DNA from: Methanohalophilus sp.
Lineage (GTDB): Archaea > Halobacteriota > Methanosarcinia > Methanosarcinales > Methanosarcinaceae
Direction of reading: 5' to 3'
Assembly (NCBI RefSeq): GCF_030156785.1
Contig: NZ_JASGLW010000009.1
Location: 54,359-86,358 of the forward strand
DNA length: 32,000 nucleotides
Under the pieces are notes generated by a model. The model had not been told where the DNA came from. It saw nothing but the letters and a program-made list of their open reading frames with translations, and ran no database searches. A program made the position numbers and the translations under genes. Shown here in pieces: positions 2,120-29,347 of this stretch; the first letter of the stretch is position 1, and the number at the start of each line of letters is the position of its first letter.

Positions 2120-2776
2120 ATGCTATTCGATTTGCATGTTCATTCCTGCTTTTCAAAAGACAGTGATTCGGATCTGGATTCCATCCTGAAGTGGGCAAAA
2201 ATAAATGGGCTTGACGGGCTTGCAATTTGTGATCATGATTCGGTAGAGGGGGGAGTGGCTTGTTCCAAACGCGCTGAAGAATTGGATTGTGATATTCTTG
2301 TAATTCCGGGAATTGAAGTTAGCTCTGCCGAAGGGCATGTACTGATCATTGGAGTGAATAAAGCAATTCCACCTGGATTGAGTGTCCCTGAAACAATAAT
2401 ATGTGCCCGGGAGTAGGGAGGAATTGTGATAATTCCACATCCTTTCAAACGTACTTCCCATGGCATTGGATATGTTGAAGGGCTGGACATTGATGCGGTC
2501 GAAGTTTTTAATTCACGCTGTCTTACTTCATATGCCAACAAGCGTGCAAAAATGGTTGCCGATAGGTTAGGCATACCGCAGGTGGGGGGAAGTGATGCAC
2601 ATGAGCCTGGTATGGTGGGGCGTTCCTATACTGAAATCGATGCATCTGAAAAAACAGTTGAAGCAGTGCTTTCGGCAATCAAAAACGGGAATGTCAAAGC
2701 AGGTGGCCAACGTACGCCACCACAGTATTTTATAAAGCAGATGTTCAGGGGCTTAAAAAAGAAAGTTCAGGCTTGA
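2120..2776 (+). CDS. PHP-domain metal-dependent phosphoesterase, interrupted by one in-frame TAG (2414..2416)
   Basis: The track ORFs 2051..2416 and 2426..2776 are in the same frame (2426-2051=375). The N-terminal half has the PHP motifs FDLHVHS, AICDHD, GIEV and EGHVLI. The C-terminal half has IIPHPF and GGSDAHE. The likely start is ATG 2120 (MLFDLHVHS); an alternative ATG at 2051 overlaps the hflX stop. Confidence 0.7.
2414..2416 (+). other. in-frame amber (TAG) codon inside the PHP-domain gene
   Basis: The sequence reads ...ATA TGT GCC CGG GAG TAG GGA GGA ATT GTG ATA ATT CCA CAT..., giving ICARE-TAG-GGIVIIPH in one frame. Confidence 0.95.
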
Positions 2777-14661: not shown

Positions 14662-14733
14662 GCCGTCGTGGCTTAGTGGTATAGCGGCTGATTCGTAATC
14701 AGCAGGCCGGGGGTTCGAATCCCCCCGACGGCT
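14662..14733 (+). tRNA. tRNA-Thr (anticodon CGU)
   Basis: The manual cloverleaf is: acceptor GCCGTCG/CGACGGC, anticodon stem GCTGA/TCAGC, loop TTCGTAA (anticodon CGT), T arm GGGGG-TTCGAAT-CCCCC, discriminator T. No CCA is encoded. Confidence 0.9.
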
Positions 14734-15006
14734 AATTATCCCGAGATTCAAACATTATAAACTTATTTTGTGATTTGGTGTGATGTATATTTTATATTAG
14801 GTTAAGTGTGAGGTGTAAATAATGCACAATATTCAAGATTCAAATAATAATTGTCAGTTACAATTCCTGATAGCATAGTAGATCTAAAGGGCTGGAAAAA
14901 AGGAACAAATCTTAAGTTTGTTAAAGTTTATTCCTGCCGGTGATCATGGTTGTCATTCCCCTACCTTTAAGAAATACAACAATGATTTTGGTGATCCCTT
15001 GAGTCT

Positions 15007-15029
15007 TTTATTTGGGATAAGGGATTTTT
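15007..15029 (+). repeat. 23-bp motif TTTATTTGGGATAAGGGATTTTT, copy 1 (downstream of csa3)
   Basis: It matches 15931..15953 at 19 of 23 positions without gaps, in the same orientation. Confidence 0.4.
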
Positions 15030-15082
15030 CTGCATCTTATTGATAGCAACAACTACTTTCTTGCCACATCAACCTATATTTC

Positions 15083-15682
15083 TCAGATTACAGCAATCTT
15101 TCCCGCATCAGTTATCGAATAGCCGTCTTTCTCTTCGATATATCCCATGGTCTTGAGTTCACGCAGGTGGTTGTATGTCATTCCTTTTGAGATTCCAATG
15201 TTAACTGCAATGGTCTTTACCGACTTGATGCCCGACTGGATCTGTTCAAGAATTAGTTTTTTTGTGTCAGAAATATTAAAACTCAAGATAGGGAAATCAA
15301 TGATGAAATTGTCTTCCTCAGTGACATATACTATCTTCTTTACCATATCACTTCTGGCATAAGATCCAAAGAGAGCGCCGAATGCCTGCGGTTTCCTACC
15401 ACCGGAAACATTCACGATTATTTCGTTTCCTCGTGCGTATTCATCTTCTATCAAGTTTGCCACGTCCTGAGCTACGCGCACGGTGTCGTAGAGGGATGTT
15501 ATCTTCTTTTCAATCTCTATTACCTTCCCAAATGTAGCTTCCAGCATCTGTTCAGCCTGACGTTTTTTTTCTACAGTTCCATCTTCGGTTAGGATGATGA
15601 GTTTGGAAGGGGATAGGCGAGTCACACATGTGATTACTGGTTCGATAGCGTAGAGGGTAGTAATTAGGGTTAGGTTGGACAT
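15083..15682 (-). CDS. csa3: Csa3-like CRISPR-associated transcriptional regulator (N-terminal CARF domain + C-terminal wHTH)
   Basis: 199 aa counted from ATG 15682 (MSNLTLITTLYAIEPV). The Rossmann-like N-terminal domain has VSGGRKPQ. The C-terminal segment SVKTIAVNIGISKGMTYNHLRELKTMGYIEEKDGYSITDAGK is a winged helix. The gene is divergent from cas3. Confidence 0.75.
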   Translation of the reverse strand: MSNLTLITTLYAIEPVITCVTRLSPSKLIILTEDGTVEKKRQAEQMLEATFGKVIEIEKKITSLYDTVRVAQDVANLIEDEYARGNEIIVNVSGGRKPQAFGALFGSYARSDMVKKIVYVTEEDNFIIDFPILSFNISDTKKLILEQIQSGIKSVKTIAVNIGISKGMTYNHLRELKTMGYIEEKDGYSITDAGKIAVI

Positions 15683-16042
15683 CAGATTTACTTTATTGGT
15701 TAGGAGTTTATATTGCTTCCTATATATGATGCATATGTTTTTGTAAATATCTACTACCATTAATTATATATCCAACGTTTACTTATCTACATTATATGTC
15801 ATCAAGCACTCATGCAGATCTTGATCATCGTTTCGAGATGCCTATAACCTTAGAGAATAATAAAGAATGTATAAGATGATAATTTCTGGACAAAAATTAT
15901 ATTACCTATCAAATCGATTTATTTCAATAGTTTATTTGTTGGAAGGGATTTTTGATAACATTACTTTCATTTAATTTGGGAGTACAAAATAAACGGAACG
16001 CAATTACAATAGCCTTGTAGCAACAAAAAGGGAGGTTGGATC
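15683..16042. promoter_or_regulatory. divergent csa3/cas3 intergenic control region
   Basis: 360 bp AT-rich spacer between the two start codons. It contains the 23-bp motif copy at 15931..15953 and GGGAGG 7 nt before the cas3 ATG. Confidence 0.4.
15931..15953 (+). repeat. 23-bp motif TTTATTTGTTGGAAGGGATTTTT, copy 2 (90 bp upstream of the cas3 ATG)
   Basis: It matches 15007..15029 at 19 of 23 positions. Confidence 0.4.
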
Positions 16043-18823
16043 ATGGCTGGCAAAGTTGAGAAGCTAATGTATCTTAATTGGGGCAAATCCATATCATCAG
16101 GAGAGGGGGATAATCTTGATTATCATTTACTTGTTTACCATTGTCTGGATGTTGCAGCGGTTGGAACTACCCTATTGGAAAATGATAAGCTATTGTTAGA
16201 GAAATTCAAAGAACATATTCCATTAGACGATGAACAAATCATCTCATTGGTGTCGTTCTATCTTGCAATCCATGATTTGGGCAAATTTTCAGAGAGATTT
16301 CAAAATCTTCAACCAAATTTACTAATTTCTTTAAGAGGGCATGATAGCAACAGAAGTTACACTCTTCGGCATGATAGCATGGGTTTTTACCTCTGGAGAA
16401 CGATCTGGCAAACTGTATGGAACGAGAACTGGCTTTGTCTGGACAAAAGTACCTTTAATTCATTAGATTGGAATGATATTATACTCCCGTGGATTAAATC
16501 AGTAACAGGACATCATGGTAATCCTCCAAAACCATATATGGACAATGGCATTGCAGTGAATCAAAATGAATTGTTTACTGAAGAAGACCTTTCAATGGCA
16601 AGTTCATATGTACAAAAAGTATCATCTTTGTTATTGAAAGATGCTTTCAAAGGTCTCTCTGGGCCTGAGGGCTATGAATACGAATTTGAAGATTTGGAAA
16701 CTGCATTCAAGAGTACTTCATGGTTACTTGCAGGTATTGTAATAGTAAGTGATTGGATTGGTTCTTCAAACGAACAGTTTGAATATTTATCAGTTCTTTT
16801 TCCTCTGGAGGAGTATTGGGAAAAATACGCTTTGCCTTCAGCAGAAAAAGCGCTGAACAATTCGGGTATTTTGCCTTCAGTGATTTCACCGAGTACTGGA
16901 ATGGATATTCTCTTTCCCAAAATCGATGTTCCGAGTCCAATGCAAGATCATATATCGAGCTGTCCCATTGCAGATAGTGCTCAACTCTTCATATTGGAAG
17001 ATACTACAGGAAGTGGCAAAACGGAAGCTGCTTTATGTTTGGCTCATCGTATAATGGCAAAGGGTATTGCAAACGGGATTTATTTTGGTCTGCCAACAAT
17101 GGCAACTTCTAATGCAATGTATGGAAGGTTAATGGATTCTTACAAAAAGTTGTATGTACCTAATTCCCTTCCTTCACTTGTGCTTGCGCACGGTCAAAGT
17201 CATCTATTGCATGTTTTCAGCAAATCTATTGATACTGAGGTCCACGAAAGTAGCAATTATGGAGATGCTTCATCAAATGATGCTACTGTTTCTTCACAAT
17301 GCTCTACATGGATAGCTGACAATCGCAAAAAAGCTCTGCTTGCTGATGTTGGTGTAGGAACTATTGACCAGGCTTTGTTGGGAGTTCTTCCTTCAAACCA
17401 TCAATCACTGAGATTACTGGGTTTGTCGCGCAATGTCCTGATAGTTGATGAGGTTCATGCGTATGATCCATATATGCATAGATTGCTATGCAGTCTTTTG
17501 GAATTCCATGCATCATTGGGTGGTAGTGCAATTCTTCTCTCTGCTACGCTACCGGTAAAACATCGTCAGGAATTGGCATCCCACTTTTGCCGTGGACTCG
17601 GTTGCTCAGTGGATGCTATTTCCAGTGACAAATATCCCCTTGTTACACATGTTTGCGAAAGTGGTCTATCGGAAATTCAAATAGAACCTCGTGTTGGTAC
17701 GGAACGTACTGTCAATGTTGAATTTTTCAATGATGAGTCATCTGTCAGAGAAAGACTTGTGAAATGTTCTATTGAGGGGAAGTGTTGTTGCTGGATTCGA
17801 AACACTGTTGATGATGCGATTGAATCATACGATATACTTGTATCTGAATTAGGAAGCGATTCTGTAATTCTTTTCCATGCAAGATATGCAATGGGAGATC
17901 GTCTGAAAATTGAAAATGATGTTCTTAGTGCATTCGGAAAAGAAAGTGATGTTCAGAAACGTAAGGGTAAAGTGCTAGTAGCAACTCAGGTAGTAGAACA
18001 GTCTTTGGATATAGATTTTGACTACATGGTTACTGATCTTGCTCCAATTGACCTTATCTTTCAGAGAGCCGGTCGTTTACAACGCCATTGTCGTGACAAA
18101 AACGGAGCTCTAAGTGATCGTGATGAACGGGGCACTCCACTTCTTGGAATCCTTTCTCCAAAATTGGGCGGGGACATCTCATCAGACTGGTATTCGGATA
18201 TGTTTCCTAAAGGGGCATATGTTTACCAATCTCACGGACAATTGTGGCTTACTGCTAATTTGCTTGCAGAACGTGGAAAGTTCTGCATACCGGATGAAAG
18301 TCGATATTTCATAGAGTGTGTTTTTGGCAAAGATGCTGGTACCAAAGTTCCCTCAGAATTGAAAGTTCTTGATGAACGTGCATATGGGGATTCAATGGCT
18401 CAAACCTCAATGGCGAATTTCAAATCTCTAAATTTTTCACAGGGTTATGAGCGTTCGGGTACACAATGGCTGGATGATGTTGTAACTCCAACCCGTCTTG
18501 GGGAATCGGTGAACATTCATCTTGCACGGTTTGAAAATGGGATTCTTGTTCCGATGGTAAAATCTGATAGGTTTTCATGGGAAATGAGCCAGTTAAGTGT
18601 TAGCGGCGGTCGTATCAGGTACTCAGACGACTATGACAAGGAAGTTAATGAGTTGATCCAGAAAGCTCAGGATTCAATGAAAGACAAAGGTAAGTGGAGT
18701 ATATTGATTCCTATGTTTTCAGATGATGGGATTAACTGGAAGGGTACTGCAAAAGACAAATACAACAGGCAAGTCAAGTTAGTTTACAATTCGGAAATTG
18801 GTCTTTGTCTAAATAAAGAATAA
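16043..18823 (+). CDS. cas3: Cas3 (HD nuclease + SF2 helicase), type I-E
   Basis: 926 aa. HD motifs are HCLDVAAVG and AIHDLGKFSERFQ. Helicase motif I is DTTGSGKTEAAL and motif II is DEVHAYD. Confidence 0.95.
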   Translation: MAGKVEKLMYLNWGKSISSGEGDNLDYHLLVYHCLDVAAVGTTLLENDKLLLEKFKEHIPLDDEQIISLVSFYLAIHDLGKFSERFQNLQPNLLISLRGHDSNRSYTLRHDSMGFYLWRTIWQTVWNENWLCLDKSTFNSLDWNDIILPWIKSVTGHHGNPPKPYMDNGIAVNQNELFTEEDLSMASSYVQKVSSLLLKDAFKGLSGPEGYEYEFEDLETAFKSTSWLLAGIVIVSDWIGSSNEQFEYLSVLFPLEEYWEKYALPSAEKALNNSGILPSVISPSTGMDILFPKIDVPSPMQDHISSCPIADSAQLFILEDTTGSGKTEAALCLAHRIMAKGIANGIYFGLPTMATSNAMYGRLMDSYKKLYVPNSLPSLVLAHGQSHLLHVFSKSIDTEVHESSNYGDASSNDATVSSQCSTWIADNRKKALLADVGVGTIDQALLGVLPSNHQSLRLLGLSRNVLIVDEVHAYDPYMHRLLCSLLEFHASLGGSAILLSATLPVKHRQELASHFCRGLGCSVDAISSDKYPLVTHVCESGLSEIQIEPRVGTERTVNVEFFNDESSVRERLVKCSIEGKCCCWIRNTVDDAIESYDILVSELGSDSVILFHARYAMGDRLKIENDVLSAFGKESDVQKRKGKVLVATQVVEQSLDIDFDYMVTDLAPIDLIFQRAGRLQRHCRDKNGALSDRDERGTPLLGILSPKLGGDISSDWYSDMFPKGAYVYQSHGQLWLTANLLAERGKFCIPDESRYFIECVFGKDAGTKVPSELKVLDERAYGDSMAQTSMANFKSLNFSQGYERSGTQWLDDVVTPTRLGESVNIHLARFENGILVPMVKSDRFSWEMSQLSVSGGRIRYSDDYDKEVNELIQKAQDSMKDKGKWSILIPMFSDDGINWKGTAKDKYNRQVKLVYNSEIGLCLNKE

Positions 18824-18835
18824 GAAGGTAATACC

Positions 18836-20422
18836 ATGGTATTTAATTTGATTCATGAAAAATGGATATGGGTAAATAGGCAGGATGGTAAAAGGGAAAA
18901 GATAGCTCCATGGGAGATTACTGACAAATTAGATTCGAATCCTGTTATTTCTCTGGCTGCACCACGCCCAGATTTTAATGGTTCTCTGATCCAATTTCTG
19001 ATTGGATTGGTACAAACTACTATGTCTCCTAAAAATGAAAGGGAATGGAGGAAACATTTTATCAACCCTCCAACAACGGATGATTTGCAAGAAACATTTG
19101 ATAATGTGTCCAATGCTTTCAATCTTGATGGTGAAAATGAGCGTTTTATGCAGGATTACGATTCTTTTGAAGGGGTTGAAAATCGTGTAGATTTGTTGCT
19201 TATGGAGATGCCAGGTGAAAAAACTATTAAAGATAATACCGACCACTTTATAAAAAGAGATACAGTCTCGCAAATGTGTTTTTCTTGTTGTGCAACTGCA
19301 TTATTCAATTTACAATTAAATGCTCCCACGGGAGGGCAGGGTCATCGCACTTCACTCAGAGGTGGTGGTCCTTTGACTACTTTGGTCTTGGGAAATAATT
19401 TGTGGCAAACAATATGGTTGAATGTCATTTCAGAAGATAATTTTGAACGATTGGGAAATATTGACAAAAATGCAATAAGCGATATTTATCCGTGGATGGG
19501 TCCCACTCGCACAAGTGAAAAGAAAGGAATGGATACGACTCCCATGGATGTAAATCCCAAGCAGATGTATTGGGGAATGCCACGTAGAATCAGTATTGAT
19601 TTTTACGATCTTAAAGAAGGCTTTTGTGATGTATGTGGTTGTGAGACAGATAGACTTGTTTCCCGTTATGTTACAAAGAATCATGGAATAAACTATGAAG
19701 GAGGTTGGTGTCATGTTCTGAGTCCATATCGTGAAACAAAAGATTCTATAATATCACTACATCCGAGACCTGGTGGCATAACCTATCGCCACTGGCTGGG
19801 TCTGATTCAAAATGACCCTGAAAATGGGTAGCATCCTTCTTTGTCTTTTGAACGATTTGTCGGCAAACAGTTGGATTTGGCAAATTTGGATGACGTATTG
19901 CAACGTTCTCCTCAACTATGGGCATTCGGTTATGATTTCGATAAAATGAAAGTCCGTTGCTGGTATGAAAGTATTATGCCTTTATTCAATGTTCCTGAGA
20001 ATATCAGGTCCACTTATGAATCCATTGTATCTCAATTGATAAAGACTGCTGAAATTATCGGTGATAACACAGAAAGGTGTATAAAACAGGCATTATACGG
20101 CAAAAATCCGATTAGAGGGGATATCTCCTTTATAGACGCCAGCTTCTGGCATGATACAGAATCCAAATTTTATAATGTACTCAATCAATTAATCCCTATA
20201 CTGAAAAATAATTTGGATGCCATTGATCTGAAACTACAATGGGTTAGAAGTTTGTCACAAGTATCTGAAAGATTGTTTGATCAATATTCCCAATCCATGC
20301 AATTCAGTGTAGTTGATCCTGAAAGAATAGCTTTAGCTCGCAGAGATCTTAGAAGATACAATTACGAAGGTGGTAAGAAAATAAGAGATACTCTGGGGTT
20401 GCCTGAAAAATCTAAAAAATAA
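18836..20422 (+). CDS. cas8e: Cas8e/Cse1 (CasA) Cascade large subunit, interrupted by one in-frame TAG (19829..19831)
   Basis: The track ORFs 18836..19831 and 19841..20422 share a frame (19841-18836=1005). The N-terminus MVFNLIHEKWIWV and the segment LRGGGPLTTLV parallel E. coli CasA (MNLLIDNWIPV, LRGGTPVTTFV, both from memory). Together the two parts give about 528 codons, which is the normal Cse1 size. Confidence 0.85.
19829..19831 (+). other. in-frame amber (TAG) codon inside cas8e
   Basis: The sequence reads ...CCT GAA AAT GGG TAG CAT CCT TCT TTG TCT TTT GAA CGA..., giving PENG-TAG-HPSLSFER in one frame. Confidence 0.95.
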
Positions 20423-20459
20423 ATGTTTGATTGTACTATAATTGTATTTGAAAAGGTGA

Positions 20460-20969
20460 TTGGAATTGACTATAAAGAAAAATTCGTTGGACAAGAATCC
20501 AGAAGCGTGTCAAGCTTTACTGACATGGTGGAAGGATTTGGACAATAATCGAGGGGATAGAGCCGATCTTCGCAGGTGCCACAGCATTGTGGATGTAGTT
20601 TTTAATCCTGCATACCACAAATTGTGGTTGGCTCTGAACAAGCTCGGCTTTGGAAATAGGGATTCTGTTGCAGTAATTGCCGGAGTATTGGTTCATGTGA
20701 AAAATCATCAGGCAGGGGAATCATTTGCTGCTCAAATGGCGAGTACCAAAGATGGTTCAAATACACAGGTTAGTGGATTAAGGTTTAAAAGACTGTTAAA
20801 AATCAAGGATAAGGACGAATTATTTAGTTCAATTGTTCGAATTGTCAAGTTAATGGATGGAAACGTCAATGTTTGCAATCTTGCGAACAGTCTCTACTGG
20901 TGGAATGATATCACAAAGAAAGAATGGGCTTACAGTTACTATGAAAAGGCACCTAAAACTAAAATTTAA
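20460..20969 (+). CDS. cse2: Cse2 (CasB/Cas11e) Cascade small subunit
   Basis: About 168 aa. The segment WWKDLDNNRGDRADLRRC is typical of Cse2, and the gene sits between cas8e and cas7. The start is TTG 20460 or TTG 20466, the latter 6 nt after GGTGAT. Confidence 0.85.
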   Translation: MELTIKKNSLDKNPEACQALLTWWKDLDNNRGDRADLRRCHSIVDVVFNPAYHKLWLALNKLGFGNRDSVAVIAGVLVHVKNHQAGESFAAQMASTKDGSNTQVSGLRFKRLLKIKDKDELFSSIVRIVKLMDGNVNVCNLANSLYWWNDITKKEWAYSYYEKAPKTKI

Positions 20970-20988
20970 GGACTTAGGAGAAAATAAG

Positions 20989-22098
20989 ATGACTAAATTT
21001 ATACAAATACACACGCTCGTATCGTATCCCCCATCCAATTTGAATCGTGATGACTTGGGAAGACCAAAGACTGCCGTTATGGGCGGGACTCAAAGACTCA
21101 GGGTCTCTTCACAGAGTCTTAAAAGAGCATGGAGGACATCAGACACTTTCAAAGAAAGTCTTGGTGACCACATAGGAATTCGTACAAAACGCATGGGTAT
21201 CAGTATTTTCAAAGCATTGACAACAGGCAGACGTCTGATAGATATTGTGAATAACAATGTTGATGCGGTTAAGGTTAATCCAGAAGTGTCCGAAAAAGAA
21301 GCAAAAGAGTGGGCAAAGTCAATTGCAGGGGTATTTGGGAAATCTAAGAAAACGGATAGTGATGATGCCTTGGTAGATCTTGAAATAGAGCAACTGGCAC
21401 ATTTTAGTCAGGAGGAAATATCAGCAATTGATGACCTAATCGCTAAAGTATCAGCAAGTGGAAAATCTCCTTCAAAGGAAGATCTCAACCTTTTGAGAAA
21501 GGATCACACTGCTGTGGATATTGCCATGTTCGGGCGTATGCTTGCATCCGACACTAAATTTAATACTGAAGCTGCTGTACAGGTTTCTCATGCTATTACT
21601 GTCAACGAGGTTGCAGTCGAGGATGATTATTTCACTGCCGTGGATGATCTGAATAGAGGTGAAGAAGATATGGGCTCAGCCCATATCGGAGAAACGGAAT
21701 TTGCTTCCGGTTTGTTCTATACTTATGTTTGTGTTGATTGTGAACTTCTGGAAAACAATCTTGGTGGGAATAAGGATCTTGCAAAAAAGGCTTTATGTGC
21801 ATTAGTAGAGTCAATAGCAAAGGTATCTCCTACGGGAAAACAGAACAGTTTTGCATCAAGGGCATATGCATCATACATGATGATCGAGAAGGGTACTCAG
21901 CAACCACGTTCACTTTCGGTTTCATATCTGGAATCGATTAAGGGGAGAAACATGTTAAAAAATGCCATAGAGTCTCTCAAGCAGACAAATGAAAAGATGG
22001 AACAAGTATACGGTAATTGTTGTGATGAAAGGCTGGAAATGAATGCTTATACAGGTGAAGGTAGTATGGATAAAATGCTGGAATTTGTAAGCAGCTAA
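20989..22098 (+). CDS. cas7: Cas7e (CasC/Cse4) Cascade backbone subunit
   Basis: I trimmed the start to ATG 20989, which follows TAGGAG. MTKFIQIHTLVSYPPSNLNRDDLGRPK parallels the E. coli CasC N-terminus. The product is 369 aa. Confidence 0.95.
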   Translation: MTKFIQIHTLVSYPPSNLNRDDLGRPKTAVMGGTQRLRVSSQSLKRAWRTSDTFKESLGDHIGIRTKRMGISIFKALTTGRRLIDIVNNNVDAVKVNPEVSEKEAKEWAKSIAGVFGKSKKTDSDDALVDLEIEQLAHFSQEEISAIDDLIAKVSASGKSPSKEDLNLLRKDHTAVDIAMFGRMLASDTKFNTEAAVQVSHAITVNEVAVEDDYFTAVDDLNRGEEDMGSAHIGETEFASGLFYTYVCVDCELLENNLGGNKDLAKKALCALVESIAKVSPTGKQNSFASRAYASYMMIEKGTQQPRSLSVSYLESIKGRNMLKNAIESLKQTNEKMEQVYGNCCDERLEMNAYTGEGSMDKMLEFVSS

Positions 22099-22118
22099 AC
22101 ATCAAGGAGTCGATTGGC

Positions 22119-22865
22119 GTGAAAGATTATTTGATTTTCCGCTTATACGGTCCAATGGCTTCATGGGGTGACATCGCAGTAGGTCCTTATAGACCTAGTT
22201 TTGATCACCCTTCAAAATCAGCGATATTCGGTCTGTTGGGAGCAGCTCTAGGTATTCGTAGGGAAGAAGAAGAAAAGCAACTGGAATTAGCTTCTGCTTA
22301 TCATTATGGAGTTATTATAAACTCTTCTGGGTTTATGCTTCGTGATTATCACACATCTCAGGTTCCTGCTTCTGGTAAAGGTAGAAATAAGAAGAAATTT
22401 TTAACAAGAAAAGATGAACTTGCCGTTCCCAAGTATGAATTAAATACTATCCTTTCGACACGAGACTACTATTGTGATGGGCTCTACACTGTGGTTCTTT
22501 ATTCGAGAACAGAGAATCCACCTTATTCTCTTGAAATAATCAGAAACAGTCTGAAAAAGCCTTCATTTTCGATGTATTTGGGAAGAAAATCATGTCCTTT
22601 GGCACTTCCTCTTGACCCTATGATAATATCTGCTCCCAATATGAAAGAAGCACTTGCAAACATTGAGTTTAACGATGGAGCTTTTGTGGGAAAATTAATT
22701 GATAATGATATTTGCAGACTCTATTGGGATGATCCTGAAGAAAATATTTCATTTGAGCATAGTATTTCCCGACGTGATAACGTATTGAGCCGGAAAAGGT
22801 GGCAGTTCTCAGATAGGAAGGAATACTATTCAATGGTGAATTGGAGGAATGATGCATGTACATGA
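22119..22865 (+). CDS. cas5: Cas5e (CasD)
   Basis: GTG start. MKDYLIFRLYGPMASWGDIAV parallels E. coli CasD (MRSYLILRLAGPMQAWG, from memory). Confidence 0.9.
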   Translation: MKDYLIFRLYGPMASWGDIAVGPYRPSFDHPSKSAIFGLLGAALGIRREEEEKQLELASAYHYGVIINSSGFMLRDYHTSQVPASGKGRNKKKFLTRKDELAVPKYELNTILSTRDYYCDGLYTVVLYSRTENPPYSLEIIRNSLKKPSFSMYLGRKSCPLALPLDPMIISAPNMKEALANIEFNDGAFVGKLIDNDICRLYWDDPEENISFEHSISRRDNVLSRKRWQFSDRKEYYSMVNWRNDACT

Positions 22866-23536
22866 GTAGAGCAAAACTTCTTCCAATTGCAGTTTCAAAT
22901 AACGGCTTATGGAAATACATGGGAAATAATTATAATGTCCATCGGCTGGTCTGGTCTTTGTTTTCGGGAGGATCAGACAATACAAGGAATTTCTTGTATC
23001 GGCAGGAATCAAATGGAAAGCTACCAACTTTCTATATTGTATCTGAGGAAAAACCTGATGACAAATCTGGTTTATGGGATCTTGACATAAAGCCATATAA
23101 TCCGGTTTTAAAATCAGGGCAGAATCTTTATTTTTCAATTCGTGCAAATCCAATAGTTTCAAAAAGAGATGAGAATGGAAAGCAGCATCGCCATGATGTA
23201 GTAATGGATGAAAAGCTCCGCATAAAGAAAGAGAACCCAAATAAAGTGTGTATGGATGTTTCTGAAATAGTGCAAAATAAGGGGGTTGAATGGCTACAAA
23301 AGAGATCAGATTCTTATGGTTTTTCGATTGATACTAACCGGGTCCGTGCGGATGGGTATAAGAGCCACAAGTTCTATAAAGCAAAGGGAAAACATTATAT
23401 CAATATCAGTACGATTGATTTTAATGGGATTCTGACGATTAATGATCCGGAATTGTTCAAAAAGGCTCTTTACCATGGGATTGGTCCGGCAAAAGGTTTT
23501 GGTTGTGGTTTACTTCTTGTTAGACCGGTTCGCTAA
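22856..23536 (+). CDS. cas6e: Cas6e (CasE/Cse3) crRNA endoribonuclease
   Basis: N-terminus MYMSRAKLL and glycine-rich C-terminal loop GIGPAKGFGCGLLLV. It overlaps the cas5 stop. Confidence 0.9.
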   Translation: MYMSRAKLLPIAVSNNGLWKYMGNNYNVHRLVWSLFSGGSDNTRNFLYRQESNGKLPTFYIVSEEKPDDKSGLWDLDIKPYNPVLKSGQNLYFSIRANPIVSKRDENGKQHRHDVVMDEKLRIKKENPNKVCMDVSEIVQNKGVEWLQKRSDSYGFSIDTNRVRADGYKSHKFYKAKGKHYINISTIDFNGILTINDPELFKKALYHGIGPAKGFGCGLLLVRPVR

Positions 23537-23544
23537 ATTGAGGA

Positions 23545-24727
<1,183 letters not shown>

Positions 24728-24849
24728 ATGGGTTGAGGTTTATTTATGATACGGAATTGTGCGTACACACTTTTATACTGTTTTAATACTGTACAATTAA
24801 GTTTGATTGAAGGAAAGTCTTTTCCGTTTCATCAAATAAATATGCCACA
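24728..24849 (+). promoter_or_regulatory. CRISPR leader with candidate archaeal TATA-like elements
   Basis: 122-bp AT-rich segment between the cas2 stop and repeat 1. It contains the tandem TTTTATACTG TTTTAATACTG at about 24771..24791, roughly 60-80 bp upstream of the first repeat. Confidence 0.55.
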
Positions 24850-27447
24850 GAGTTCCCCACACACGTGGGGATGAACCGGCGCAGCCTCGTACATCATCTC
24901 AAAGATCATAGAGTTCCCCACACACGTGGGGATGAACCGGGAGTTTTGTTCCGTTGCGAAGTTTCCCGATGGAGTTCCCCACACACGTGGGGATGAACCG
25001 TACACCCAAACCACCGATAATGCCTGAAATTAAGAGTTCCCCACACACGTGGGGATGAACCGTCAACATTAACAGTTATCTCCTTTAGCTTGTGGGAGTT
25101 CCCCACACACGTGGGGATGAACCGTTCGGCCGGCAGTACGCATTCGATGTATTGATGAGTTCCCCACACACGTGGGGATGAACCGGTTGGGTTGGATGCG
25201 GATAAACCGATCAACCCGAGTTCCCCACACACGTGGGGATGAACCGTGATATACTAAAACACCGAACATTACGCTTTAGAGTTCCCCACACACGTGGGGA
25301 TGAACCGGATTAGCTGGAGATCTTGTAATAGGGGGGATAGAGTTCCCCACACACGTGGGGATGAACCGGCTCCCAGGACTATTGACTATATAATGGATAT
25401 GAGTTCCCCACACACGTGGGGATGAACCGTTATTGTAACACTCATCAATGATTTGGAAAACGAGTTCCCCACACACGTGGGGATGAACCTAGTTGCTGGA
25501 AACTCTAAGGTCAGCATCCCTGGAGTTCCCCACACACGTGGGGATGAACCGATGGCAGGCGAGTTTTTCAAACAAAAAAAGGAGAGTTCCCCACACACGT
25601 GGGGATGAACCGTTGCAGGGTATGGCGTAAGCGTAAAAGTAAGGGAGTTCCCCACACACGTGGGGATGAACCGTTACAACGAGTGCTTGGCTGATTCTGC
25701 TTACTGAGTTCCCCACACACGTGGGGATGAACCGTGGTGAGAAACCCACTTCACTGCTACGACCAGGAGTTCCCCACACACGTGGGGATGAACCGCATTA
25801 GCAGATGTATCCATACCCCCGGTAATTGAGTTCCCCACACACGTGGGGATGAACCGTTGCAAACGGAGTAGCTGGTTTGGATGTAAATGAGTTCCCCACA
25901 CACGTGGGGATGAACCGCAGAGGGGATTTCCGCCAATTCACGTATAGATGAGTTCCCCACACACGTGGGGATGAACCGTGGAATTCTCTTTCCGCTGCAA
26001 CAAAACGCAAAGAGTTCCCCACACACGTGGGGATGAACCGGGGGCCCTTTAATGTTGGATAGCTCGGACGCCGAGTTCCCCACACACGTGGGGATGAACC
26101 GGGGCCCTTATGCAGGATTACCCACACAGTAACGAGTTCCCCACACACGTGGGGATGAACCGCAATACGTGGGTGTTGTCGATCTGGTGTACTGCGAGTT
26201 CCCCACACACGTGGGGATGAACCGATCCACGTATGAGTCAGCATTGAAAAAATGGGGAGTTCCCCACACACGTGGGGATGAACCGCACCAACGTATCACC
26301 CGCTGACATCTTCCATAGAGTTCCCCACACACGTGGGGATGAACCGTAACACAAAAAATCCAGATCATGATCAAACCAAGAGTTCCCCACACACGTGGGG
26401 ATGAACCGATGCCACTGATATCACCAAATGTTTGTTTTGAGAGTTCCCCACACACGTGGGGATGAACCATAGCTCCGAATGCTAAAGGGGTCAGAGGTAC
26501 TGAGTTCCCCACACACGTGGGGATGAACCGCAATGCATGGGTATTGTCGATCTGGTGTACTGGAGTTCCCCACACACGTGGGGATGAACCGTTATCGCAT
26601 AAATCAAAAACCGATTTGTTCACGAGTTCCCCACACACGTGGGGATGAACCGTGTGGGAGACCAGTATATAGCCACCGATTCGAAAGAGTTCCCCACACA
26701 CGTGGGGATGAACCGCGCTTGCAATCGGTGCCGGACAGGACGGAGCAGAGTTCCCCACACACGTGGGGATGAACCGCAGAGGGGATTTCCGCCAATTCAC
26801 GTATAGATGAGTTCCCCACACACGTGGGGATGAACCGCGTTATCTGTAGTTTCATTCAAAACCACCTTTGAGTTCCCCACACACGTGGGGATGAACCGGC
26901 TATCGCTATCGGTGCGGGGCAAGATGGTGCGAGTTCCCCACACACGTGGGGATGAACCGCACATATTTACAATCCTGATACCGATTCATATGAGTTCCCC
27001 ACACACGTGGGGATGAACCGTCTGCCTTTGGCATTTCCCTAAATGCAACCTCGAGTTCCCCACACACGTGGGGATGAACCCAGACTCTAGCTCATGAAAT
27101 AGGCCATGCAAAGGAGTTCCCCACACACGTGGGGATGAACCGAAAAATTGAATTACAGCCACACAAACCAATTAGAGTTCCCCACACACGTGGGGATGAA
27201 CCGAGCTAAAAAATATGATTAAAGGTTGTGTCGCTGAGTTCCCCACACACGTGGGGATGAACCGGAATTTTAGGTGAGAGGGTTAGATTTGGACGCGAGT
27301 TCCCCACACACGTGGGGATGAACCGGTTATGTCGCTAACCTAAATGCAAACGATTATGAGTTCCCCACACACGTGGGGATGAACCGGTTTAGGGTTAGGC
27401 AGTGAAGCCCGTCTAGCAGAGTTCCCCACACACGTGGGGATGAACCG
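24850..27447 (+). CRISPR. Type I-E CRISPR array with 43 repeats of 29 nt and 42 spacers
   Basis: The repeat GAGTTCCCCACACACGTGGGGATGAACCG has a CCCCAC/GTGGGG stem and an ACAC loop. Its orientation matches the E. coli I-E repeat, so transcription runs from the cas2-side leader. Hand counting gives 36 spacers of 32 nt, 5 of 33 nt and 1 of 34 nt, and the lengths sum to 2598 bp, which equals the array span. Confidence 0.98.
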
Positions 27448-27493: not shown

Positions 27494-27530
27494 ATTCGAA
27501 TTCAAGATCCACTATAACAAGGATTGAAAC
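27494..27530 (+). repeat. solitary 37-nt I-B/III-type CRISPR repeat, copy A (ATTCGAATTCAAGATCCACTATAACAAGGATTGAAAC)
   Basis: It is 36/37 identical to 29311..29347. It ends in ATTGAAAC, the canonical 8-nt crRNA 5' handle of Cas6-processed I-B/III repeats. It is unrelated to the I-E repeat. Confidence 0.8.
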
Positions 27531-28178
27531 GCAACTTCGAGAAGCTGTGATTCCTTGGAAACACCGCAGTATGCTGCAGAATTTATGGCGTCCACAGCTT
27601 CACAGGAAAGCCCTTCGGAGGTAGCCCATACAAAAGGATCTCGAACAAGGACTTTGCATTTTACCTTTCTCTCGGATTATCTGGTTGATAGTTATAATGC
27701 CGTTTGTTCATGTTTCGGCACCTGATTCAAGTGCTTCCTGCGCCAAGGTTATAGGCTTTGCCGTTTGCATCGTAGGCTTTCTTCCCACCTTGCAGATGGG
27801 GAGTGTGACAGAATTGCCTTCGATAATCGATGTTTCGGATAGAACAGTTGATTGTAGGACTGGCATACCGTAGGCTGTCACTGTGGAGTATTTAAAGGGA
27901 AGTTAAGGAACTGGACCATCTCTTGTCTAATTTGGGCCATTTTTGGAATGATACCAATGGTTTTGAAGTGTTTGAAGCCGTAGCAGACTGATTACTAAAT
28001 TATAAGTAGTTATAAGTTATTATATATTACTATTAATTAACTATAAATATTATTAACTTCTTATAATGAAAAGCTTCTAGTCGCAAAAGACCAGAAAACC
28101 ACAAAATAAACACAAAAGAAAATTAAAAATTAATCCCAAAATAAAGTTAAACTCAAAAAACAAAAGGAGTTGGCAAAA

Positions 28179-28400
28179 GTGAATGCAGAAGCAACAACTA
28201 TCCCCATAACAAAATCGATTCGGGACAGGCTGAAAAGCTTTGGTCAAAAAGGGGAAACCTATAGCGATATTCTTACACGCATGATGGATTCGATCGATAG
28301 AGACGAATTTATGGATCGAATGTACCGGCGGCTTGAAGAAAAAGATCAGTTTGTCTCACTCGATAGCTACGAGAGCGAGTTAAATGGAGTACAAAATTGA
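28179..28400 (+). CDS. putative antitoxin (small RHH-like DNA-binding protein) of a RelE/ParE pair
   Basis: The segment TIPITKSIRDRLKSFGQKGETYSDILTRMM has the beta-strand and helix pattern of archaeal RHH-type antitoxins. The gene overlaps the toxin start by 17 nt. The start is TTG 28170 or, better spaced from AAGGAG, GTG 28179. Confidence 0.55.
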   Translation: MNAEATTIPITKSIRDRLKSFGQKGETYSDILTRMMDSIDRDEFMDRMYRRLEEKDQFVSLDSYESELNGVQN

Positions 28401-28668
28401 GATACACACCGAAGTTCAGAAATTTTTGAATGCACAGGACAGCAAAACGCAGCACCGTCTAATTAAAGGATTAAAACGGTTGAAAAACGATCCTCTATCG
28501 CATGATATCAAAAAGCTGAAAGGCACAAAAGGAAGACCGGATTTATATCGTTTACGAATTGGAAATTACAGAGCTATTTTTTCTATTGAAGATGATACCG
28601 TCAAGGTTATTGAAATAATACCTCGCGAGAAAGGTTATGGGTGGCTTGCCCTTCTACTCGTAGCCTGA
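28384..28668 (+). CDS. relE: RelE/ParE-family type II toxin
   Basis: 94 aa. The segment DLYRLRIGNYRAIFSIEDDTVKVIEIIPREKGY matches the RelE/StbE family signature (YRxRxGdYRxIy...V..I.hR...Y). Confidence 0.75.
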   Translation: MEYKIEIHTEVQKFLNAQDSKTQHRLIKGLKRLKNDPLSHDIKKLKGTKGRPDLYRLRIGNYRAIFSIEDDTVKVIEIIPREKGYGWLALLLVA

Positions 28669-29126: not shown

Positions 29127-29322
29127 ACTGCTCTTTCATCCAGTCTCCAAACTCCTTTGCAATTGGACGGGGGGACGGGTTGTTCATGTATTCGGACCAT
29201 AATTCCGCTATAAATTCTCTATCGTTTACAATAGCATAGCGAGATACACCTTCACTAATTTTATCTGCGTTTTTATTCGTAAAGAAGTTTGCCACTTTTT
29301 CTAGTCTATAATTCGAATTCAA
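29116..29322 (-). CDS. small hypothetical protein (up to 68 aa)
   Basis: The ORF is upstream of and overlaps 28932..29126. The annotated TTG start lies inside repeat copy B, and an internal GTG at 29295 is an alternative start. I recognised no motif. Confidence 0.3.
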   Translation of the reverse strand: MNSNYRLEKVANFFTNKNADKISEGVSRYAIVNDREFIAELWSEYMNNPSPRPIAKEFGDWMKEQFEE

Positions 29323-29347
29323 GATCCACTATAACAAGGATTGAATC
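29311..29347 (+). repeat. solitary 37-nt I-B/III-type CRISPR repeat, copy B (ends ...GGATTGAATC)
   Basis: Direct copy of 27494..27530 with a single mismatch at 29346 (T for A). Confidence 0.8.

Follow-up and report, generated by a model that had tools for sequence, protein, structure and literature searches.

The cas8e gene (cse1/casA), which encodes the large Cascade subunit of type I-E CRISPR systems, is interrupted by a single in-frame TAG in a 32,000-nucleotide stretch of DNA from Methanohalophilus sp. (contig NZ_JASGLW010000009.1, positions 54,359 to 86,358; hereafter, the window). We regard it as fairly probable that this codon is a strain-specific, drift-type change from a Lys or Gln codon to UAG at a tolerant loop position, in a host that decodes UAG as pyrrolysine (Pyl), and that the gene would accordingly give a mixture of full-length Pyl-containing Cas8e and an inactive fragment. 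The window derives from a metagenome-assembled genome (MAG), and the NCBI name Methanohalophilus sp. is attached to the exact 331-aa product of this gene. The gene and its parts are as follows:

18836..20422, plus strand: type I-E cas8e (cse1/casA), 528 sense positions if the TAG is read through (from translation, PF09481 matches on both parts, and homologues)
18836..19828, plus strand: stretch of 331 aa ahead of the TAG, made if UAG acts as a stop, with the glycine-loop motif NAPTGGQG (MDK2892831.1)
19829..19831, plus strand: in-frame TAG, codon 332, candidate pyrrolysine or stop (from sequence and translation)
19832..20419, plus strand: part after the TAG, 196 codons, predicted helix, beta-hairpin (tip K370) and four-helix bundle, with no stop or frameshift

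Translated in one frame, 18836-20422 gives 331 codons, the TAG, 196 codons and a terminal TAA, with no other stop, and the codons around the site read GAA AAT GGG TAG CAT CCT TCT TTG. The Pfam family CRISPR_Cse1 (PF09481, 450 profile positions) matches the first part over profile positions 1-301 (E=5.9e-81) and the second over 324-449 (E=5e-21). Since these segments are consecutive on both sides of the TAG, the two parts are colinear, without deletion or frameshift, and homology picks up immediately after the TAG (HPSLSF...). The initial annotation had proposed that cas8e is colinear, without deletion or frameshift, with the TAG at a sense position and about 528 codons in all; translation and Pfam matches bear this out, and no additional stop or frameshift was found in the 528 codons. 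The apparent second open reading frame (ORF) from TTG 19841 is a by-product of ORF calling, and the NCBI annotation likewise splits the halves as two 'CasA' proteins, MDK2892831.1 and MDK2892832.1. Full-length cas8e homologues are 520-550 aa long and 54-84% identical, and a profile search against PDB retrieved E. coli CasA (4QYZ_A, E=1.3e-28, residues 3-313). An in-frame TAG within a conserved domain, with homology on both sides, corresponds to Category 1 of Kivenson et al. If Pyl is inserted, the predicted tryptic peptide across the site would be HWLGLIQNDPENG-O-HPSLSFER.

The codon is real. Over 14677-24877, the Logan assembly of SRR23823870 matches the window at every base, TAG included, and its contig was seen in two samples, so that the TAG cannot be ascribed to the faulty assembly of a single record. 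Sister-strain contigs from four runs (SRR29026315, SRR29026319, SRR29026320 and SRR34848657), 99.9% identical to the window over 17466-24878, have AAG (Lys) at codon 332; they were reached through the 90%-identity protein cluster of the N-terminal fragment, which also holds a full-length 528-aa protein. Methanolobus bombayensis, Methanohalophilus sp. RSK and Methanolobus sp. Soudan_28 have CAG (Gln), and four other Methanosarcinales genomes have TTT, AGT or TCT. At the DNA level, TAG was thus found at codon 332 in none of the seven other genomes and in none of the AAG sister contigs, and an exact-match scan of Joint Genome Institute (JGI) metagenome contigs with a 44-nt site, with N at the first base of the codon, gave no match. 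The aligned residue in 19 full-length protein homologues is Q, H, Y, L, F, S, G, E, K, N, D or T. Conservation of the TAG across relatives, a possibility raised by the initial annotation, is therefore contradicted, and a TAG at the same position in orthologues, as in the methylamine methyltransferase genes mtmB, mtbB and mttB, is not a feature of cas8e.

As judged from these sequences, the TAG is restricted to one strain lineage and is one base from both AAG and CAG, that is, of single-step origin. Given a long stem leading to the window and AAG strains and very short terminal branches, the most likely course would be that the codon first changed on the stem, probably from CAG to AAG, and that AAG later became TAG in the window lineage. 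A TAG already present in the common ancestor and later changed to AAG would be the lesser alternative.

The TAG was then placed in the protein. For the alignment we used an E. coli CasA sequence (502 aa), of which residues 1-300 and 406-486 agree with PDB alignments. The junction in E. coli reads ENG-N-RVAAVVNQF, with the TAG opposite Asn325, and the colinearity described in the initial annotation was reproduced with this sequence. HMMER alignments against PDB, with the single sequence and with a profile, cover the first ~300-313 residues, i.e. upstream of the TAG. An AlphaFold2 (AF2) model built from 20 sequences, with a predicted local distance difference test score (pLDDT) of 62.8 that falls below 50 over residues 279-342, was used for secondary-structure order only: coil at 325-335, helix at 336-349, beta-hairpin at 360-382, and a four-helix bundle from ~391. 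In this low-confidence model the TAG would lie in a predicted loop ~60 residues ahead of the four-helix bundle, and not at the junction with the bundle where it had first been placed, since a helix and the hairpin intervene. The hairpin tip K370 aligns with the Asn-Asn-Gln tip of an E. coli hairpin that we take to be the 'glutamine wedge'. The glutamine wedge is assigned to the N-terminal domain in a review (PMC6546366). In NAPTGGQG, T165 is opposite E. coli G157, where the glycine loop begins. A bundle-less 331-aa product, as initially suggested, is indeed what termination would give, but the wedge-aligned hairpin would be lost along with the bundle; by this model, a product lacking both should be inactive. 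The E. coli CasA/Cas8e (PDB 4QYZ, 5H9F) shares with the window protein the family, operon order, repeat type, glycine-loop motif, and the succession of hairpin and four-helix bundle. It differs in its low sequence identity and in the Asn at the TAG position, and the extra Cys-rich segment (CDVCGC) is that of the archaeal clade.

Methanohalophilus is a genus of obligately methylotrophic methanogens, and a tRNA for pyrrolysine was present in all five genomes compared (PMC6491703). M. mahii contains PylS (Mmah_0283) and a citrate synthase gene with an internal amber codon (PMC3017947), and is listed with pylS and tRNA-Pyl (PMC3639795). Pyl synthesis and use have been described as conserved across Methanohalophilus, with 95 in-frame-TAG proteins predicted in Candidatus (Ca.) M. 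hillemani, for which proteomics found peptides downstream of predicted Pyl sites (10.64898/2026.01.29.702513). Because the host belongs to a pyrrolysine-decoding genus, readthrough at the cas8e TAG is a reasonable expectation, the Pyl capacity of the window strain itself being ascribed at the level of the genus.

The initial annotation was aware of no Cas protein with Pyl or with a UAG gate, a view that is outdated. In a preprint, Kivenson et al. (bioRxiv 10.1101/2024.09.30.615893) propose that in some archaea every TAG is read as Pyl ('Code 34'), and they count Methanohalophilus with the genera in which internal-TAG genes are numerous. By targeted proteomics they observed Pyl in Cas1, and they predict it for Cas2, Cas4, Cas8e and Cas10; predictions for Cas1 and Cas3 had been made earlier. 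These cases resemble the window cas8e in having an internal TAG in a conserved Cas domain of a Methanosarcinaceae-type methanogen, at positions that are not conserved; the survey is silent on a sense-codon sister allele, whereas for the window cas8e the AAG allele is known. Thg1 (tRNA-His guanylyltransferase) of M. acetivorans, a singleton Pyl protein attributed to neutral drift, is likewise a case of a non-conserved, tolerant position, without a PYLIS (pyrrolysine insertion sequence) and with ordinary residues in orthologues; there, however, Pyl incorporation was shown experimentally, whereas in the window cas8e it is deduced. M. acetivorans reads UAG both as Pyl and as stop with no cis-element; its sensor kinase RdmS, which has a native internal UAG, is made in a truncated form and in a full-length form, and the full-length one requires pylBCD (PMC12626013). 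Such a pair is the behaviour expected of the window cas8e, although RdmS is another protein from another genus and the window gene is known from its sequence. The citrate synthase 'pseudogene' of M. mahii, in the same genus and also with a single UAG, was argued to encode Pyl since the enzyme is indispensable (PMC3017947), an argument that cannot be transferred to cas8e, which is dispensable.

The ~33 likely genes of the window end in TAA or TGA, and TAG is never an evident true stop in window positions 1-32000. Only two ORFs end in TAG, each being split inside a conserved domain, namely cas8e and the following gene:

2120..2776, plus strand: PHP-domain phosphoesterase with the second in-frame TAG (2414-2416) (Pfam PHP, PHP_C)

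In this conserved, single-copy gene the TAG falls between the regions matched by PHP and PHP_C; homologues show L, Q, I or R at this position, and the nearest sense homologue has TTG (Leu). The PHP TAG was found in 10 of 10 sister-strain contigs from at least five runs; since these include runs with the AAG cas8e, it is older than the cas8e TAG and fixed in the population. In the half after the TAG the invariant catalytic metal-binding residues are kept, and codon differences to the nearest homologue number 36 synonymous and 9 non-synonymous, a pattern indicating purifying selection on this half. This suggests that the lineage tolerates internal TAGs, and two per 32 kb is in line with the published ~95 per 2-Mb genome. 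An alternative code of the whole organism was rejected, as TGA and TAA are normal stops, which leaves TAG as the one codon in doubt, and the genes are archaeal (TFIIB, Trm5/TYW2, HerA, Gar1, RIO kinase and pyruvate phosphate dikinase, at a G+C content of ~42%).

No recoding signal was found at the cas8e TAG. The stretch of 120 nt that begins with the TAG has a folding energy of -22.8 kcal/mol, and shuffled sequences average -23.3 (z=0.14); this compares stability and not similarity to PYLIS, and a PYLIS-like fold was rejected on this ground. The ratio of non-synonymous to synonymous rates (dN/dS) of the half after the TAG is 0.12-0.27 against relatives, compared with 0.13-0.18 for intact-intact pairs; the window-specific branch carries 7 synonymous and 6 non-synonymous codon changes in this half, although these numbers are small.

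In cas8e, the window and the AAG alleles are separated by five fixed changes (T165A, R311G, TAG/AAG, K370N and E413K), all of them non-synonymous, against a single, synonymous difference in the 4.9 kb of flanking cas genes compared. Strain-level differences lie at the following positions:

plus strand, cas8e: 18933, 19328, 19766, 19829, 19945 and 20072
plus strand, cas6e: 23434

Non-synonymous changes are enriched in cas8e relative to its flanks (Fisher p=0.001), as are differences overall (five of six inside cas8e, binomial p=0.004). Compared with all synonymous sites the excess in cas8e gives p=0.11, and dN/dS above 1 is therefore not established. With M. bombayensis as the reference for polarisation, the window lineage gained G311R, N370K, K413E and the TAG, and the AAG group gained T165A, with D33G in some members. 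T165A falls in the glycine-loop motif, and residue 370 lies at the tip of the hairpin aligned with the E. coli wedge. This pattern would fit either diversifying selection on the parts contacting DNA and the protospacer adjacent motif (PAM) in both lineages or relaxed constraint in the TAG lineage. Recombination was rejected as the source of the five differences, since all are non-synonymous and a diverged donor would bring mostly synonymous changes, as it does in the tract at 551-1355. There, over the DUF2209 gene and the 5' end of hflX, sister contigs are ~17% different, and from 1356 on they differ by one base each in ~2.5 kb, which looks like a sharp recombination tract from a diverged donor. 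The DUF2209 gene of the sister contigs ends in TAG, with a TGA a few codons further.

Taken together, we propose that one point substitution turned codon 332 of the gene for the large Cascade subunit into UAG, at which an amber-decoding tRNA charged with pyrrolysine and the release factor would compete. One product would be full-length Cas8e with Pyl at position 332, which probably works because the site accepts many residues; the other would be the 331-aa fragment without hairpin and bundle, which should be inactive. The ratio of the two would follow the supply of Pyl-tRNA. We infer both the readthrough as Pyl and the activity of the full-length protein. The TAG would then be a 'singleton' of the drift type that accumulates in Pyl-decoding archaea, with no dedicated cis-element and no indication of selection for the codon.

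Several observations weigh against this proposal. The main rival is a plain loss-of-function allele, in which the TAG stops nearly all ribosomes; Cascade function would have been lost in this strain so recently that the downstream frame is still open and the other parts of the locus are still in place. The 32-kb window contains no pyl genes or tRNA-Pyl, its only tRNA being tRNA-Thr, and in a protein search with the M. mazei PylS catalytic domain all of the 120 matches listed were Methanosarcina-type. In Ca. M. hillemani very few Pyl peptides were detected beyond the methyltransferases, and the authors suggest that TAG acts mainly as a stop (10.64898/2026.01.29.702513). The sister strains hold a sense codon at 332, AAG in the 99.9%-identical alleles of all four other runs. 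The TAG lineage has also gained three further non-synonymous changes, the number of which fits neutral accumulation (3 in 1587 sites against 1 in 1048 flanking synonymous sites, p=1.0), although positive selection would fit them as well; G311R, N370K at a widely conserved Asn, and the charge reversal K413E could reflect relaxed constraint after inactivation, and two of the three lie after the TAG, at conserved or basic positions. The lack of a readthrough-promoting structure (z=0.14) fits simple termination as well. On the other hand, no second lesion is found in 528 codons. Every change in the intact AAG alleles is likewise non-synonymous (T165A, D33G and Q332K), so that fast change of the Cas8e protein also occurs outside the TAG lineage. 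Tolerance of internal TAGs is argued by the PHP gene, in which the TAG is fixed in the strains and the half behind it is conserved, and a native internal UAG in M. acetivorans does give both long and short forms (PMC12626013). Loss of function is thus a serious possibility, to which we give about half the credence given to readthrough of a drift-type UAG.

The remaining explanations appear far less probable. The initial annotation had suggested that the UAG could act as a gate coupling interference competence to amber decoding; as an evolved gate, the UAG would be kept by selection so that Cascade competence tracks pyrrolysine or methylamine status. Substrate-dependent readthrough is possible in principle, as the pyl genes of M. 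acetivorans are at least fourfold up on trimethylamine (PMC12626013), and the TAG lies upstream of the parts needed for DNA opening and Cas3 recruitment. However, the codon is conserved in no relative at any distance, there is no downstream structure, the PHP gene, unrelated to cas8e, has the same kind of TAG within the same 32 kb, and the incidence of Pyl in Cas proteins was judged no different from random mutation in the published survey (10.1101/2024.09.30.615893); such a gate is unsupported, and we consider it quite unlikely. A related but slightly less improbable idea is that the change from Lys to UAG belongs to a burst of adaptive Cas8e replacements, in which Pyl or a methylamine-dependent dose of full-length protein would have been recruited in an arms race with viruses or anti-CRISPR proteins; this would rest on the five of five fixed differences being non-synonymous, T165A lying in the glycine loop that reads the PAM and N370K at the wedge-aligned hairpin's tip, and we hold it to be improbable. 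A split Cas8e, with termination at the UAG, re-initiation at TTG 19841 or later and two assembling polypeptides, would have an analogy in the small subunits made from inside cas8 of other type I subtypes, and there is an in-frame TTG three codons past the TAG as well as two CasA fragments in the NCBI annotation. Nevertheless, 19841 lacks a preceding Shine-Dalgarno-like motif, an in-frame ATG first comes at codon 371, within the hairpin, the system has its own cse2 small subunit, and the homologues are all single-chain, which makes this reading very unlikely. Least probable of all is a sequencing or assembly error at 19829. A single base in a MAG could invite this suspicion, but the same base occurs in the NCBI MAG and in the Logan contigs from two samples. 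Moreover, the other allele has AAG instead of the CAG seen in other genera, with four further differences linked to it, so that TAG and AAG alleles represent two real haplotypes.

The operon around cas8e consists of the following features:

16043..18823, plus strand: cas3 (HD nuclease and helicase), intact (Pfam Cas3_HD, Cas3-like_C_2)
20466..20969, plus strand: cse2/cas11 small subunit, intact (Pfam CRISPR_Cse2; gene call in Logan contig; identical protein on 8 contigs)
20941..22098, plus strand: cas7e, intact (Pfam Cas_CT1975; gene call in Logan contig)
22119..22865, plus strand: cas5e, intact (Pfam Cas_Cas5d)
22856..23536, plus strand: cas6e, intact (Pfam CRISPR_assoc)
23545..24465, plus strand: cas1, intact (Pfam Cas_Cas1)
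24446..24727, plus strand: cas2, intact (Pfam Cas_Cas2CT1978; gene call in Logan contig)
24850..27447, plus strand: type I-E CRISPR array, 43 repeats of 29 nt and 42 spacers of 32-34 nt

The gene order cas3-cas8e-cse2-cas7-cas5-cas6e-cas1-cas2, together with the array of 29-nt repeats, identifies the system as type I-E. In agreement with the initial description of an intact operon and a 42-spacer array with near-perfect repeats, all seven other cas genes are without lesion by Pfam, and only 3 of the 43 repeats deviate, in the last base only. These three end in T, A or C instead of G. In E. coli type I-E systems, the last repeat base derives from the PAM. One spacer is present twice in the array at 24850-27447. 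None of the 42 spacers matched the rest of the window with up to six mismatches, and self-targeting as a selection for cas8e inactivation was rejected for this reason. Upstream of cas3 on the opposite strand, a gene at 15083-15760 (minus strand) combines an HFX_2341-like N-terminal domain with a winged-helix helix-turn-helix domain and matches Cas_APE2256 weakly; it is a candidate transcription regulator of the cas operon. Directly beyond the end of the I-E array, a 37-nt repeat, ATTCGAATTCAAGATCCACTATAACAAGGATTGAA(A/T)C, with an Rfam CRISPR-DR7 match above the gathering score, occurs in two copies 1.8 kb apart (27494-27530 and 29311-29347), and between them lie a ParE/RelE-type toxin-antitoxin pair (28170-28668) and small ORFs. 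The repeat pair may be a remnant of a second CRISPR array, in which a cassette was inserted in place of a spacer.

In summary, the cas8e TAG adds one case to the internal TAGs already known from the genus, which number about a hundred genes per genome, and Pyl in Cas proteins, Cas8e included, has already been reported. Standard gene callers give two 'CasA' fragments for such a gene, so that the system would be scored as defective. The value of the case lies in the natural allelic pair of TAG and AAG, carried by near-identical strains in a non-essential gene with an easily scored phenotype, CRISPR interference. This pair would be a convenient test of whether Methanohalophilus reads every UAG as pyrrolysine, as proposed in 'Code 34', or whether the codon is ambiguous or mostly a stop.

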